NCBI RefSeq assembly: GCF_988243305.1
Contig: NZ_OZ547136.1
Length of the DNA: 64,000 nucleotides
Reading direction: 5' to 3' (one strand)
Shown: positions 14,502 to 62,745 of the stretch, piece after piece
Numbering within the stretch: the stretch's first letter is position 1
How the letters are laid out: every line of letters begins with the position of its first letter
The notes under the pieces: generated by a model
Told to the model about the DNA's origin: nothing
The model's database searches: none
The model's input: the letters and a program-made list of their open reading frames with translations, nothing else
Translations under genes and position numbers: made by a program

Positions 14502-16168
14502 TACCAGCCCCCCCGATCAAATTCATGATATGCCTCATCGTCATCACGATAACCGCCCTCCATTGCCCGCGACCGCTCCGGTAGCGCCTGACAGGCTGAT
14601 TCATCCAGGATGAAGCCCTCCATGTATGACGCCCGGTTTGCCATACAGAGCGCCACGGCAAAATCACCATGGCGGCGGGCGTTCGCAGCCGTTGCGTTCT
14701 GGTCCTTCGTGCGCCCCTTGTCGATTTGCGGGATACCATTCACTACCTTCACATGGCGCAAATCATCAAGCGTGGTCTGATGGCGGGCGACGAGGATATT
14801 CTGATCTTCAAACTCGGCTTTCAGTTTTGGCATCCACTCGCCGTACCACTTCGGCGACAACATCACGCAGTCGATGATATCCGGGCCAAAGGCCAGCAGT
14901 GCGGCCTCTGCCAGATAGCCGCCGTTACCGGTGGCGTCGAACGCCGCACCGACCAGCGCCGGAACGCGGGTCAGGATGTACATCATCACCTGTTCCTGCT
15001 GGGCATACGGCAGGTTGCGCAGCTCCACGCGAAACACCTCGCGCTTTGCCAGGGATTCGGTGATTTCCAGCAGCACAAAGCAGGACAGGTCACCGGTGCG
15101 GGCAAAGTCTTCCCCGAAGCTGAAGCGGGAACGGGGATTTAATTTCTCTAAAAGCGGTTTTAAATGTTCTTCACACCAGGTTAAAACTTCCGATTCACGC
15201 AGCCATGCGGCACGGCTGATGAAGTTGTCCGGGGCTTCAAACGTCAGAATCGGGATGTCGCGGATCATCGCCATTTCAATAAGCGCGTGGGGGATATAGG
15301 CACCGCCGGATTTTTTCGGGATACAGCCGTATTCCTCGTCGGCATCCTCACGGGTCGGGGCGTTTTTGTAGAGATCATCACGCCATTTCTGCTCGCTTTC
15401 CGGTGACCATTCCTGATCGGTGACGTAACAGATACGACGGTACAGCCCGTCCGCAATGGCATCATCCAGGGTTATGCGGTGGACGCTGTAATCCTTGCGC
15501 CCCTCGCGGGCTTCCTGAATGTACTGATTAAACAGATTATCGACGCCGTTATGCGTGGAGATAATACGCACGCGCGCGCCCCACATAGTGAGCGCCATTG
15601 CCGCCTTGAGAAGCTCATCCAGTGACTCGTGGAACGCGGCTTCATCAATCACCACATCCCCCTGAAGGCCGCGCAGGTTTGACGGACGGGAAGACAATGC
15701 CTGAATTTTGAATCCACTGTTCGGAAAGCGGATCATGTAGGTCAAAATTTCTTCTTTTTTATCCCGATCCCAGAATGTCTGCTCATACACATCAGCATCT
15801 GCCAGCTGGTTAAAGGCACGGGAGAACAGCGCGCAGGCAGAAATATATTCCAGCGCCATCTCCTGCTTTGATCCCACATAAAACACATTGCGGCCACCAC
15901 GACGCTTCGGTTTTGCAGCAGTAATGACGTTACGCCCGGCTTCCGCCCAGGTAAGACCGGTGCGGCGGGATTTCTCCGCGATGCAGACCTGACTTTCATC
16001 TGCAAACCAGCGGGCCTGATAATCCAGAAACACCGGCATATCACCGGGCAAATCAAGGCTGTCCGGCACATCCACGCCCAGCAGGGCTTTTTCACCTGAC
16101 AGATCAATTTTGCGGGGAGGCGTCATTTGCATCAGTGAAGGCGACGTTTCTCTGGCTTTGTTCATCAT
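14501..16168 (-). CDS. terminase large subunit (Mu gp28-like)
   Basis: 555-aa ORF preceding portal. Confidence 0.8.
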   Translation of the reverse strand: MMNKARETSPSLMQMTPPRKIDLSGEKALLGVDVPDSLDLPGDMPVFLDYQARWFADESQVCIAEKSRRTGLTWAEAGRNVITAAKPKRRGGRNVFYVGSKQEMALEYISACALFSRAFNQLADADVYEQTFWDRDKKEEILTYMIRFPNSGFKIQALSSRPSNLRGLQGDVVIDEAAFHESLDELLKAAMALTMWGARVRIISTHNGVDNLFNQYIQEAREGRKDYSVHRITLDDAIADGLYRRICYVTDQEWSPESEQKWRDDLYKNAPTREDADEEYGCIPKKSGGAYIPHALIEMAMIRDIPILTFEAPDNFISRAAWLRESEVLTWCEEHLKPLLEKLNPRSRFSFGEDFARTGDLSCFVLLEITESLAKREVFRVELRNLPYAQQEQVMMYILTRVPALVGAAFDATGNGGYLAEAALLAFGPDIIDCVMLSPKWYGEWMPKLKAEFEDQNILVARHQTTLDDLRHVKVVNGIPQIDKGRTKDQNATAANARRHGDFAVALCMANRASYMEGFILDESACQALPERSRAMEGGYRDDDEAYHEFDRGGW

Positions 16169-16413
16169 GCTTTACCTGTCAGAATGCTTTTGATTCGGGA
16201 CTCAAGCTCTTCAGTCATCACGTCCACGCCGCTCAACTCATCAGTGGCAGCCTCTGCCAGCAGCGAATGCAGTTGTTCCAGGGATATTTCCCCGGCAATG
16301 CTGAGTTCAGTCAACTCACGACATACCTTTATGGTTTCAGGAGGTAACTGTGTTGCAAGACTGAATGCTTTCTGATGGGCACTGCTCATCAGTGAGCGGT
16401 TATCTGTTGCCAT
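16165..16413 (-). CDS. small protein whose C-terminus copies the C-terminal motif of the adjacent terminase small subunit
   Basis: 82 aa ending ...DELSGVDVMTEELESRIKSILTGKA versus upstream protein ending ...DELRGVDGMSEQIEFRIRQMLLGKA. Confidence 0.5.
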   Translation of the reverse strand: MATDNRSLMSSAHQKAFSLATQLPPETIKVCRELTELSIAGEISLEQLHSLLAEAATDELSGVDVMTEELESRIKSILTGKA

Positions 16414-17298: not shown

Positions 17299-17602
17299 TG
17301 TGTTTTTTCCTTACAGCCTGCTCCAGCAGCAGTTCGTTCTGGTGGGAGACGGATTTCAGGGTGGCATTGGTGGCCTTAAGCTCACCGCGCAGGGTGGTGA
17401 TTTCGATATTGAGTCTGTTCACCTCCTGCTGCGTGGGCAGGCCGGAAATCCGGCTCTCCACCCGCTCAACCCGGTCGGAGAGTTTTTCAAAGGCCTCGCG
17501 GGGGACAAAGGTTTTGCGCATCAGCGCCATAAAGATCCCCCCGGCCGTGGCTGTTGCCGACAGGATCGGCACGACATAATCTTTAACGATGCTGACCCAC
17601 AT
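17291..17602 (-). CDS. hypothetical membrane/coiled-coil protein
   Basis: 103 aa with N-terminal hydrophobic segment followed by coiled-coil-like region. Confidence 0.45.
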   Translation of the reverse strand: MWVSIVKDYVVPILSATATAGGIFMALMRKTFVPREAFEKLSDRVERVESRISGLPTQQEVNRLNIEITTLRGELKATNATLKSVSHQNELLLEQAVRKKHNE

Positions 17603-17810
17603 GACCGGCCTCCATGATGCTCTGGCAGTTCACACAACGGATGGCATCCGGCACGGCAACCAGACGGGCGGCCGGAATGTCACCCCCGCAGTCTGCGCAT
17701 ACACGCCTGCCCGGAGTCTCCTCCACCCGGCACTTACGTGTCAGCCGGTCACAAAGGGCGCGTTCTGTTGCCCGCTCCACGACTGCCTGAGCACAATCTG
17801 AATCATCCAT
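17583..17810 (-). CDS. TraR/DksA-family C4 zinc-finger protein
   Basis: CxxC-(17)-CxxC motif (CADCGG...CVNCQ); start placed at internal Met (MDDSDCAQ) because the longer ORF overlaps the o-spanin gene. Confidence 0.6.
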   Translation of the reverse strand: MDDSDCAQAVVERATERALCDRLTRKCRVEETPGRRVCADCGGDIPAARLVAVPDAIRCVNCQSIMEAGHVGQHR

Positions 17811-17820
17811 ACCTTTTTCC

Positions 17821-18147
17821 TTACTTCGTCTTTCCTGCCGGAACAGCAGTCGTTCCGGCCATATCAGTAAATTCATGCTGTCGCTGTGCCTCCAGACGGC
17901 GGATGCTGGCCTTGTCCACGTTGCAGTTCTTAATCACCGCCAGCAGTTGCAGGTTGTAAGTGACCGATGCGCCAAACGTGAACGGCTGCGGCACAGGAGG
18001 AACCAGACAGTCAGCCAGCCATTCAGCGGGGATCGGCACCGGCTTCACCGGCACGTATTTCACAGACGGCCCGCCGCACCCGGTCAGCCACATCATCAGG
18101 CACAGGAACAGAGGCCGCAGGCACCGTTGCCAGCGACCGGCGGACAA
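17821..18147 (-). CDS. o-spanin (Rz1-like outer-membrane lipoprotein)
   Basis: Lipobox L-T-G-C after a hydrophobic stretch, proline-rich mature region; candidate TTG start; overlaps 3' end of i-spanin gene in another frame. Confidence 0.4.
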   Translation of the reverse strand: MSAGRWQRCLRPLFLCLMMWLTGCGGPSVKYVPVKPVPIPAEWLADCLVPPVPQPFTFGASVTYNLQLLAVIKNCNVDKASIRRLEAQRQHEFTDMAGTTAVPAGKTK

Positions 18148-18373
18148 TGCTCTGCTGTTCCTCGCTGTGCTGCATGTTCTGCTGTTTTTCATTCGTGGCC
18201 GCCTTACTGATTTGTGAAATGAGTTGCAGGGTACGTTGCTGGTTTGCCAGCACCAGACGGGCTTCGTCCCGTTCACGCACAAGCACATGATTATTGTCTT
18301 CAAGACGCTGTGTCTTCTGGTGCATTCCCCATACCACGGCAGCCAGCACGCTCATCACCCCCAGCGCCGCCAT
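18023..18373 (-). CDS. i-spanin (Rz-like)
   Basis: N-terminal TM segment (AALGVMSVLAAVVW) followed by Gln/Glu-rich coiled coil; start uncertain (ATG at 18373 or upstream GTG). Confidence 0.4.
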   Translation of the reverse strand: MAALGVMSVLAAVVWGMHQKTQRLEDNNHVLVRERDEARLVLANQQRTLQLISQISKAATNEKQQNMQHSEEQQSIVRRSLATVPAASVPVPDDVADRVRRAVCEIRAGEAGADPR

Positions 18374-18485
18374 ACACCCTCCGGCAATCAGGGCCGGTAA
18401 GGGATTATTCACCGCAGCCACAGCACACCCCGGAGCACCACAACGACACACAACAGCGCAATCATGAGTGGTCGCCAGAAGCGGT

Positions 18486-18986
18486 TCAGACTTTCGGCAA
18501 ATCGTAGCGACATAACCATTCATCCGCCGAACGGCGGGCCTCAAGACCGGGGAGTTTTACCCCCTTTGAATAAATCCAGCGGATATACTGCTTACAGGAC
18601 GCGGGCATCTGCCCGGCATTGATCAGGCGCAGAAGCGTGGAGTTGCGAAAGTTCGTTTCACCGGCCCAGAAGATCCACGAAGCCAGCGCCACCGTCTGAC
18701 CACGGGTAAGCGGCACCTGAACATGACGATCGATAGCCGCAAAGGCCCATTTCATGTCCTTTTCCAGCAGTTCCAGACATTCTTCATCGGTTTTTGTCAT
18801 ACCCGGTTTCACATCCGGGCCGGTATGGCCGTGGCAGATGGTGGGGGTGCCGGTGGGGTCGAGATACGTGGTGTTTTCTTTCCCTTCCCAGTAGCCGGTG
18901 TAGTGCGTGGCAATAGTGAACGTCCCGGCTCCGGCCAGAACAAGGGCAATCAGCTTTTTACGCAGTGGCGCGGGGAGTTTTGGCAT
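18486..18986 (-). CDS. endolysin, lysozyme-like with N-terminal signal-anchor-release (SAR) segment
   Basis: 166 aa; hydrophobic N-terminus LIALVLAGAGTFTIA then lysozyme-like body. Confidence 0.7.
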   Translation of the reverse strand: MPKLPAPLRKKLIALVLAGAGTFTIATHYTGYWEGKENTTYLDPTGTPTICHGHTGPDVKPGMTKTDEECLELLEKDMKWAFAAIDRHVQVPLTRGQTVALASWIFWAGETNFRNSTLLRLINAGQMPASCKQYIRWIYSKGVKLPGLEARRSADEWLCRYDLPKV

Positions 18987-19057
18987 TGTTACGCTGTCTC
19001 ATGGTGTTCTCTGAGCCAGCGTAACCGTGGGAAAAAGGGGGCAGGATTTGCGGAATA

Positions 19058-19480
19058 TCAGAAAAGCCGGGGCTGCGTGCGCTCCTGATGCAGGCGACGC
19101 TGGTTGCGGATAACGGAGTAAATCTGCGTCTCTGACATCTGGTAATGGCGGCGCAGGGTTTCAATTTTTTCGCCCTGGCTCCAGCGGGAAAAAATTTCAT
19201 TATTGCGCAGTTCGGTGAAAAGGGATTCACCGACCGGGAGATAATAACCACGCCCGCCCATGTACCCGGCCTGTGCGGCTGCAACCTTACGGGCAAGCAT
19301 TCCCGCCTGAGCAGGTTCAATCCCCTGACGGTGCAGTTCAGCACTGATCACATCAACCAGGTCCCGCAGCGTGCCGGGCCAGTTCTTTTTCAGCTCATCA
19401 TCAGGAATATCATCCAGACGGTCAATCAGCGCGTGCAGCTGTTCGCTGTCACCAAACATGCTCATCTGTGTTTCAGCCAT
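19058..19480 (-). CDS. Mor/C-family transcriptional activator
   Basis: 140 aa, C-terminal region resembles Mu Mor/C as I recall it; located between gemA-like gene and lysis genes. Confidence 0.7.
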   Translation of the reverse strand: MAETQMSMFGDSEQLHALIDRLDDIPDDELKKNWPGTLRDLVDVISAELHRQGIEPAQAGMLARKVAAAQAGYMGGRGYYLPVGESLFTELRNNEIFSRWSQGEKIETLRRHYQMSETQIYSVIRNQRRLHQERTQPRLF

Positions 19481-19550
19481 ACCCGCCTCCGGTCATCATT
19501 ACACAGGGCAAGTTTAAAATAAAAATCCCGCGCTGTGGCGGGATTTGGGG

Positions 19551-20127: not shown

Positions 20128-20475
20128 ATGAAAATAGATTACGATGAAGTATTAAGTATTCTCACAACTTTTCAGGATGCTGAAACACCTTTCCTTACAC
20201 TACAGGATCTGGGCATGGCTGAGGCAGAAGGAGAGGAAAAGGATAAAAAAGTTTTTCATCTTATGCTTCTCGCTGATAATGGCTCAATTGTTAATGGTGA
20301 TATGCAGTCAGAAACACCCAAATATATTGGTTTCTTTTTCCATTCTCTGGGCGTTGGTTTCAGAAACACGCCCATTATGCTTACCCAGCAGGGGCATGAT
20401 TTAGCTAACGCCCTGAGAAAAAACCAATCCTTGAAAGAATCAAAAAGGAGTTTACAGACGCACCATTTGATCTAA
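20128..20475 (+). CDS. hypothetical protein, opposite-strand AT-rich cargo gene
   Basis: 115-aa ORF with AAAGG ribosome-binding site 8 nt upstream of ATG; only plus-strand gene inside the minus-strand phage operons. Confidence 0.55.
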   Translation: MKIDYDEVLSILTTFQDAETPFLTLQDLGMAEAEGEEKDKKVFHLMLLADNGSIVNGDMQSETPKYIGFFFHSLGVGFRNTPIMLTQQGHDLANALRKNQSLKESKRSLQTHHLI

Positions 20476-62180: not shown

Positions 62181-62745
62181 ATTGGATGAGCCAGTCAAGA
62201 CTCAATCATTTTTTGAACAAATAGATAAATTTTGCGCAACGGCAATAATTACTGGAAAAACAGCAATAAAGATTTATTTATATCCTTGGTAATAGTTTTA
62301 TTAATTCACCCAAACAATATATTAGCACTGAATACAATTATACCTTTTTTGATTTCTGTGTCATGATAACCCCGTTATTAGCCTTTTATCGTCTTGTTTA
62401 TATTTTTTGGGCCGGCATGATGCCGGCTTTTTTTATACCTTCATTAATGTGCGCGTGATCACGCCTGCCGTTTGGCGCAACAATCATTGATACTCCCTAT
62501 CTTTCCATTCAACTCATAACATATTGATATACATTTATAATTTTCATGAATGTTTATATTTAGAATTCATAATTCTGAATTATATTAAATAGATTAGAAA
62601 CATTTTGAAATCTTTTAAATACATTTGTTACATGTAATCCTTAAAATAAAATGAACTTCATAGAATAGTATCCAAATGTGCTTTTTTTTGGATAACGGCA
62701 CTTATTGATATATTCATGAAGATTATAATCACAAGGGAATACATA

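Follow-up and report, generated by a model that had tools for sequence, protein, structure and literature searches.

A Mu-like lysis cassette with a predicted signal-anchor-release endolysin, a homologue of the Mu releasin and a conserved micro-ORF in a prophage of an Escherichia coli-type chromosome

How can an endolysin of the signal-anchor-release (SAR) type be set free from the membrane when no holin gene lies beside it? The question is raised by a lysozyme gene, referred to here as lys, located on the minus strand of a 64,000-nucleotide stretch of contig NZ_OZ547136.1 (RefSeq assembly GCF_988243305.1); this whole stretch is called the window below. An earlier note on this DNA had described the lysozyme-like protein and the lack of an adjacent holin, and missed the Mu-like context, the spanin pair and the experimental explanation published for phage Mu in 2022 (Chamblee et al., mBio 13:e00813-22, PMC9239132). 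Sequence homologies, the order of the genes, features of the sequences and a predicted fold place lys in a lysis cassette of the Mu type, and we estimate at about 0.8 the probability that this cassette works as in Mu, without a holin. The puzzle of the missing holin thus seems to have the solution known from Mu, since a cluster of basic residues abuts the SAR helix and a DUF2730 gene is the fifth after lys. The two genes on which this reading depends are as follows:

18486-18986, minus strand: lys, GH24 muramidase of the SAR endolysin type, homologous to Mu gp22 and to R of phage 21; starts with ATG, 166 aa
17291-17602, minus strand: DUF2730 protein (PF10805), predicted membrane-tethered and cytoplasmic, homologue of the Mu gp25 'releasin'

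The endolysin and the search for a holin

The description of a lysozyme-like protein with a SAR-type N-terminus was exact in its coordinates, and it is upheld by the family profiles, by the likeness to the R protein of phage 21 (R21), DLP12 RrrD and Mu gp22, and by a weakly hydrophobic N-terminal segment. The protein matches PF00959 (Phage_lysozyme, E=6.8e-36; cutoff 22.3 bits) and PHROG 7 (endolysin, E=3.6e-51) and is 40% identical to Mu gp22. The catalytic triad reads E34-x8-D43-x5-T49; across 23 aligned homologues E34 and D43 never vary and T49 hardly does. By sequence, the closest solved structures are those of full-length R21 (3HDE, E=4e-26) and RrrD, aligned from residue 5.

The N-terminus begins with MPKLPAPLRKK, where K3, R9, K10 and K11 are basic and no residue is acidic, and continues with LIALVLAGAGTFTIAT (residues 12-27), an uncharged segment in which Ala, Gly and Thr account for 9 of the 16 residues. 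The R9-K10-K11 cluster directly abuts this segment. The Kyte-Doolittle mean is 2.16 over 15 residues and 1.39 over 19 residues, the latter value lying below the threshold of 1.6; for comparison, the transmembrane domain (TMD) of the inner-membrane spanin (i-spanin) encoded in the same cassette yields 2.22 over 19 residues. All 23 homologues possess one or more basic residues followed by a stretch rich in A, G and T, which ends a few residues before the catalytic Glu.

The AlphaFold2 model of the protein has a mean predicted local distance difference test score (pLDDT) of 93.2, with values of 89-97 for the N-terminal 30 residues, and residues 6-17 and 22-34 form two confident helices within the globular fold. 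In a Foldseek comparison, 161 columns of the model could be superimposed on RrrD and on full-length R21 (TM-score 0.83-0.85, root-mean-square deviation 2.1 Å). The match to full-length R21 (3HDE; 161 columns, TM-score 0.84) is longer than that to truncated R21 (3HDF; 129 columns, TM-score 0.60), so the N-terminal segment of lys is modelled as a part of the soluble fold. R21 deprived of its SAR segment is reportedly inactive, a result attributed to Sun et al. in 2009. Both R21 and Mu gp22 have been characterised experimentally as uncleaved SAR endolysins (PMC9239132; PMC6116005).

The absence of a small holin with several transmembrane segments next to lys, as claimed in the earlier note, is confirmed by a transmembrane scan and by family profiles, and the closer search that might have overturned the claim revealed no clear holin in 29 kb of prophage DNA. 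The scan applied Kyte-Doolittle hydropathy to every open reading frame (ORF) of at least 25 aa on both strands of the prophage DNA (positions 1-29500). Every ORF that had at least two hydrophobic segments overlapped other genes, as an antisense or embedded shadow ORF. Profile searches with Pfam, PHROGs and NCBIfam likewise assigned no ORF of the cassette, including the micro-ORF discussed below, to a holin family. The Mu middle operon encodes the membrane proteins gp19 and gp20, which were once proposed to be a holin and an antiholin, and a tblastn search found no homologues of either in the window. The plus-strand ORF 20177-20404, which has hydrophobic stretches, was considered as a holin candidate and rejected: it lies in another frame of a DUF2513-like gene that PHROG supports, and it has no family match of its own.

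The endolysins of phage 21 and DLP12 have the same catalytic triad as lys and the same SAR architecture at the N-terminus. However, the phage 21 enzyme is released by the S21 pinholin, which has two transmembrane segments and the gene of which is situated immediately upstream of the phage 21 endolysin gene, whereas in the window this place belongs to a transcription activator and no pinholin was found. In contrast to the window, a contig of a non-Mu phage (L051), with a lysozyme 50% identical to lys, contains a hydrophobic ORF of 64 aa immediately upstream; by eye, outside the profile scan, it looks like a pinholin with two transmembrane segments. This contig shows the conventional arrangement for this enzyme family.

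The DUF2730 protein and the model taken from Mu

In Mu, gp22 is a SAR endolysin and gp23 and gp23.1 are spanins, and none of the membrane proteins behaves as a holin: none is triggered by dinitrophenol (DNP), which delays Mu lysis (PMC9239132). The function of the holin is taken over by gp25, a membrane-tethered cytoplasmic DUF2730 protein required for the release of gp22 (PMC9239132) and labelled 'releasin' in the current GenBank record of Mu. The dependence of gp22 on gp25 is conferred by the basic residues K6 and K7 adjacent to the SAR domain, Arg being equally effective there (PMC9239132). In all 34 DUF2730-carrying phages examined in the same study, the gene lies at most five genes downstream of the endolysin gene. 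A twin-basic motif at the junction of the TMD and the cytoplasmic part has also been described for gp25 (PMC9239132).

The ORF at 17291-17602 matches PF10805 with E=1.2e-22 and 80.4 bits (cutoff 24.9), its residues 6-97 covering positions 3-101 of the 102 in the profile, and shares 33% identity with Mu gp25 over 94 aa (E=2e-18), a similarity that places it with type I of the DUF2730 proteins rather than with types II and III. An alignment of eight DUF2730 sequences, including that of Mu, pairs it with gp25 from end to end and contains 26 invariant columns. The protein has one N-terminal TMD at approximately residues 9-28 (Kyte-Doolittle 1.80), preceded by a tail with a net charge of 0 and followed by M28-R29-K30; an M-R-[KR] junction is kept in all eight aligned sequences. 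By the positive-inside rule alone, the predicted topology is N-out/C-in. The ATG is preceded, 7 nt upstream, by GGAGG. Four genes separate the ORF from lys, namely the micro-ORF, the two spanin genes and a zinc-finger gene; being fifth in line behind lys, it obeys the 'within five genes' rule of PMC9239132.

The same ORF had been named in the earlier note as the nearest candidate membrane protein. It is a real gene whose product has an N-terminal TMD, but the i-spanin, the outer-membrane spanin (o-spanin) and the micro-ORF are closer to lys. The accompanying suggestion that lysis timing depends on a pinholin-like or non-canonical component divides in a similar way: the homology to gp25 favours a non-canonical component, and a pinholin-like one found no support.

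The order of genes is collinear with C, 22, 23, 23.1, 24, 25 and 26 of Mu, the homologues having been identified by sequence, and the DUF2730 gene is followed by homologues of gp26 (62% identity to Mu gp26) and gp27. Both phages have the sequence C-type activator, lys, overlapping i-spanin and o-spanin genes, small zinc-binding protein (a zinc-ribbon protein in Mu), DUF2730, gp26, gp27 and the terminase position, which up to gp27 is the order of Mu genes 21 to 27. In each, a GH24 endolysin of the SAR type has a basic pair or cluster right beside its SAR helix, and there is a DUF2730 protein that carries a TMD at its N-terminus and the M-R-[KR] junction. Mu has no holin, and none was found in the 29 kb of prophage examined here.

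By analogy with Mu, lysis would proceed as follows. The C-like activator would switch on a late promoter just upstream of lys. The lysozyme would be exported by Sec and held inactive in the inner membrane by its uncleaved, weakly hydrophobic SAR helix, which R9-K10-K11 would lock from the cytoplasmic side. The DUF2730 protein, with its single N-terminal TMD and a cytoplasmic coiled-coil body, would then promote the escape of the SAR helix from the bilayer. The freed enzyme would refold with its N-terminal helices packed on the catalytic domain and degrade the murein, after which the overlapping i-spanin/o-spanin pair would disrupt the outer membrane. Of these features, membrane tethering, dependence on a releasin and the absence of holin-type triggering are expected from the experiments on Mu.

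Several observations weigh against such a transfer of the Mu mechanism. The lysis proteins are only 25-43% identical to those of Mu. The core of the SAR segment, LIALVLA, is more hydrophobic than that of Mu gp22 and poorer in Gly (2 Gly in the helix versus 5-6 in Mu), and the tripeptides A-G-A (18-20) and T-I-A (24-26) fit the -3/-1 rule of signal peptidase I. The cytoplasmic domain of the DUF2730 protein is net basic (+3; 14 K+R and 11 D+E in 75 residues), whereas that of Mu gp25 is net acidic (9 K+R versus 12 D+E in 72 residues). The anionic character of this domain was a descriptive feature for the authors of the Mu study and the basis of one proposed mechanism, not a defining criterion (PMC9239132); if the DUF2730 ORF encodes a functional releasin, its basic domain argues against the 'acidic microenvironment' model for gp25. 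About 9 kb of the prophage, with the tail fibre genes and the right end, lies outside the window, the left edge of which cuts into the baseplate genes. Finally, a conserved micro-ORF with a predicted transmembrane segment, missing from Mu, lies between lys and the i-spanin gene, and the system may thus not be a simple copy of that of Mu. Other differences are the lack of gp19 and gp20 homologues, the detection of a single Mor/C-family gene and the presence of a TraR/DksA-type zinc finger at the position of gene 24.

The micro-ORF and other readings of the cassette

18409-18519, minus strand: unannotated micro-ORF, 36 codons from ATG 18519, encoding a peptide with one predicted transmembrane segment

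The micro-ORF likely starts at ATG 18513, which gives the 34-aa peptide MSLRFAESLNRFWRPLMIALLCVVVVLRGVLWLR. At the 5' end it runs over the 3' end of lys, and the start of the i-spanin gene is covered by its last four codons. A survey of 45 sequences (44 fetched loci and the window) detected the micro-ORF in 39 of them, as 24 distinct in-frame nucleotide versions and one version fused to lys. All 24 in-frame versions are 36 codons long. Residues R6, R16, L23, V26, R30, G31, L33 and L35 are invariant in all versions, and P17 is replaced only in L049 (WRA); the identity of the peptides falls to 44% among versions. Besides E. coli, the carriers comprise the clade L028-L035 (lysozyme 82% identical), Citrobacter braakii (L045), the contigs L041 and L042, L043 (lysozyme 54% identical) and L049.

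The pattern of substitutions suggests that the micro-ORF is a conserved, real coding gene. The ratio of nonsynonymous to synonymous differences per site (pN/pS; Nei-Gojobori, summed over codons 13-32) is 0.52 in its own frame versus 0.86 and 1.95 in the other two, the last being the frame of the i-spanin. In codons 13-29 variability is lowest at the second codon position (0.138 versus 0.292 and 0.280), which is the expected signature of a sequence coding for a transmembrane segment.

The gene is almost invisible to annotation. The family has no match in Pfam, PHROG or NCBIfam; a profile search of 1.84 billion representative proteins returned one true gene call of the micro-ORF (P0021, 34 aa, a singleton cluster), which corresponds to one call in about 15 billion predicted proteins. 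In RefSeq the stretch is left unannotated or a spanin coding sequence is drawn through it in the wrong frame. A tblastn search against phages retrieved only two records of Shiga toxin (Stx) phages, those carrying an inserted Mu-like element.

In one of the surveyed sequences, an IMG/VR contig (L027), a frameshift or deletion at approximately 3435-3560 has joined the micro-ORF peptide in frame to the end of the lysozyme, at its C-terminus (…DEWLCRYDLPKSLNRFWRPLMIALLC…). The fusion would give the endolysin a C-terminal transmembrane segment, and it could be either a sequencing error or a natural variant. An origin of the micro-ORF as a relic or duplicate of the 5' end of the i-spanin gene was also considered, because 'FAxSL' and 'G.LW' resemble the N-terminus of gp23 by eye, and found no support, with an hhalign probability of 1.8%.

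As for the function, it is tentatively proposed, and with rather low confidence, that the micro-ORF peptide is a lysis-control component of this lineage. It might be a minimal trigger that depolarises the membrane, or it might assist or oppose either the SAR helix or the releasin. If this were true, the timing of lysis in some 'holin-less' Mu-like phages would be set by a micro-protein that is almost never called by annotation pipelines.

An alternative is that the lineage is not truly holin-less and that the micro-ORF peptide, acting as a depolariser resembling a holin, a pinholin or a type I toxin, or as a retention factor resembling an antiholin, determines, on its own or jointly with the DUF2730 protein, when the SAR endolysin is released. 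The location of the micro-ORF inside the cassette, between the endolysin and the spanins and translationally linked to both, is consistent with this, as are its single hydrophobic segment, its constant length, its pN/pS value and the conservation of its second codon position; moreover, membrane depolarisation is known to release SAR endolysins (PMC9239132; PMC6116005). However, the peptide ends one residue past the hydrophobic stretch and has no charged, hydrophilic tail of the kind usual at the C-terminus of holins, its 34 aa are about half the length of the pinholin S21 68 (68 aa), and it matches no holin or toxin profile. Part of its conservation, moreover, namely the LRG...LWL end, falls on the start of the i-spanin gene and the Shine-Dalgarno sequence belonging to it, and for this reason the micro-ORF could serve mainly as an ORF for translational coupling. 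Its distribution also speaks against the alternative. The micro-ORF is missing from Mu and two genomes of the Mu clade, where the i-spanin gene starts at the lys stop, and from L050 (lysozyme 64% identical). Mu and L050 keep the pair of SAR endolysin and DUF2730 protein without it, and the micro-ORF thus appears to be dispensable for the system. This patchy occurrence among relatives points to an accessory gene outside the core system of SAR endolysin and releasin, and a holin-like function of the peptide is considered improbable.

It is very improbable that a conventional holin is encoded elsewhere, in the approximately 9 kb beyond the left edge of the window or in another resident prophage. 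The window does end within the baseplate genes, and the right-end region of a complete relative located in lsrC of E. coli CFSAN027343 (L048) encodes a protein of holin-like shape. This is a 60-aa DUF1378 protein (39093-39275 of L048) with one N-terminal TMD and a charged C-terminal tail, and the only further transmembrane protein of that prophage is a 98-aa ORF of the early region. But no L048 gene is annotated as a holin, no holin profile matched anywhere in the 29 kb examined, and the right-end accessory module, consisting in L048 of DUF6645, DUF1378 and DUF826, varies among relatives. Besides, the transmembrane proteins of Mu all cluster near lys, none of them being holin-like, and confirmed holins are all expressed from late transcripts and usually clustered with the other lysis genes (PMC9239132).

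Equally hard to credit is a cleavable Sec signal peptide, which would make lys a soluble periplasmic enzyme like Lys44 of Oenococcus phage fOg44 with some other control: the basic n-region, the strongly hydrophobic seven-residue core and the two -3/-1 motifs, as read from the sequence, are compatible with it, but AxA-like motifs also occur in the SAR domain of R21, the catalytic Glu34 is only 7 residues past the hydrophobic stretch, AlphaFold packs residues 6-34 into the fold as in full-length active R21, and the two closest characterised relatives are the uncleaved endolysins R21 and gp22 (PMC9239132; PMC6116005).

Regulation, spanins and prophage context

Release of the SAR endolysin by a DUF2730 protein, as in Mu, remains the preferred reading, and the remaining parts of the cassette and of the prophage are the following:

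1 to ~29400, transcription from the minus strand: Mu-like transposable prophage
19058-19480, minus strand: Mor/C-family late transcription activator, equivalent of Mu C, directly upstream of the lysis genes
18987-19057 (71 nt), minus strand: intergenic region with conserved boxes, putative C-dependent late promoter (Plys-like)
18023-18421, minus strand: i-spanin (Rz-like) having a TMD at the N-terminus and a helical periplasmic domain; PHROG 214, E=5e-30
17821-18192, minus strand: o-spanin (Rz1/LysC-like outer-membrane lipoprotein); PF23793 LysC, E=1.3e-16, and PHROG 3001
17583-17810, minus strand: TraR/DksA-type C4 zinc-finger protein; PF01258 and TIGR02419 (65 bits, cutoff 59.7)

The activator matches PF08765 (Mor, E=6.7e-31) and PHROG 532 (late transcriptional activator) and is closer to Mu C (40% identity) than to Mu Mor (28%). 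In an alignment of the region upstream of lys with six relatives including Mu, the motif TAnnCT is invariant (TACGCT in the window, TAGACT in Mu), and a second box upstream of it, CCGCAAATCC / CCATAATCCC, is also conserved, including in the Plys region of Mu. A scan for a sigma-70 consensus promoter upstream of lys found none, as expected for an activator-dependent late promoter. From these motifs we infer that 18987-19057 is probably a C-dependent late promoter. In the minus-strand segment 19058-20063 the C-like gene follows GemA directly, the two being set apart by a strong terminator-like hairpin (19523-19546; stem of 9 bp with a T-run after it). A second Mor/C-family gene was not detected in the window, and homologues of Mu gp18-gp20 are lacking. 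Taken together, this suggests a simpler transcription cascade in this prophage, with two tiers rather than three.

The i-spanin is 25% identical to Mu gp23 across the whole length (E=6e-6). Its probable start is GTG 18421, which aligns with the ATG start in the clades of L028, L043 and L045 and has GGGG 6 nt upstream. Starts at 18544, 18523 or 18451, of the kind used in some RefSeq entries, were rejected, as this frame has a pN/pS of 1.95, is scrambled upstream of the TMD and contains a stop in L043. The o-spanin gene overlaps the i-spanin gene by 170 nt in a different frame, and its product, 43% identical to Mu gp23.1, has the lipobox LTGC with Cys39 and a mature part of 85 aa that includes 10 Pro. 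RefSeq annotation produced by the Prokaryotic Genome Annotation Pipeline (PGAP; L002, L003 and L004) starts lysC past the lipobox Cys, at the equivalent of 18039 or 18063, and the signal peptide is therefore omitted; RefSeq starts of the i-spanin are inconsistent as well, being equivalent to 18373 or 18451. The comparative data favour 18192 as the start of the o-spanin gene and 18421 as that of the i-spanin gene. The zinc-finger gene, the start of which was taken from the RefSeq annotation of an identical sequence, occupies the position of Mu gene 24 and has no known role in lysis.

The prophage encodes on the minus strand Gam, the Gp11 C-terminal domain (Gp11_C), GemA, the Mor/C-family activator, Gp27, and head and tail proteins. 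ORFs of 696, 313 and 82 aa correspond in size and order to A, B and ner of Mu, a match by size made outside the profile scan, and an ORF of 555 aa without a Pfam match is found in the position of the large terminase. Between gp27 and this ORF, an ORF of 82 aa (16165-16413, minus strand; PHROG 30922) looks like a partial duplicate of the neighbouring gp27, with which it shares 58% identity (E=3e-10) between its final 31 residues and the gp27 C-terminus. Some relatives carry this ORF (FORC_043) and others lack it (CFSAN027343). The segment 20100-21500 is AT-rich (GC about 0.45 versus 0.56 in the flanking prophage DNA), includes the opposite-strand DUF2513-like ORF (20128-20475, plus strand; PHROG 585), and differs from the matching early region of close relatives; an accessory insertion is the probable explanation. 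Within the host DNA of the window, genes of the small RNAs DsrA (53922-54008, minus strand, 102.5 bits) and RseX (62345-62434, plus strand, 97.8 bits) were found, and the flanking DNA is therefore that of an E. coli-type chromosome.

The lysis cassette is 100% identical over 1851 bp to that of E. coli DLI.5a (L002, NZ_CP103972.1). The DLI.5a prophage is truncated: a partial tail-protein pseudogene directly downstream of the DUF2730 gene replaces gp26, gp27 and the terminase. At a coverage of at least 80%, 230 of 5426 complete E. coli genomes carry the cassette, most of them with 80-90% identity, a range of 89-100% being also given for these genomes; many of these are O157:H7, and in the E. coli Mu-like prophages, including those of O157:H7, RefSeq leaves the micro-ORF without annotation. 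The same architecture is found in Citrobacter (L045) and in contigs L041-L043, as well as in Salmonella and Serratia, the last two judged by the source names of protein hits only. Among deposited phage records there are two close matches, both annotating the region as an inserted Mu-like phage, and the phage collection searched contained no isolated phage representing this lineage. A scan of genome contigs with the DUF2730 alignment yielded only three loci, a result of limited value for the distribution because a single peptide pattern was used.

The presence of a SAR endolysin without a holin was solved for Mu in 2022, and in this respect the locus opens no new question; the only new element is the conserved unannotated micro-ORF within the cassette, predicted to encode a transmembrane peptide. 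What the locus adds is that a releasin arrangement is also found in a lineage well diverged from Mu (33-40% identity), one frequent among E. coli prophages and present in Citrobacter too. The net basic cytoplasmic domain of its putative releasin, together with the extra micro-ORF, could help to discriminate between the proposed mechanisms of releasin action, and the micro-ORF itself is a concrete case in which standard annotation overlooks a small, conserved membrane protein.

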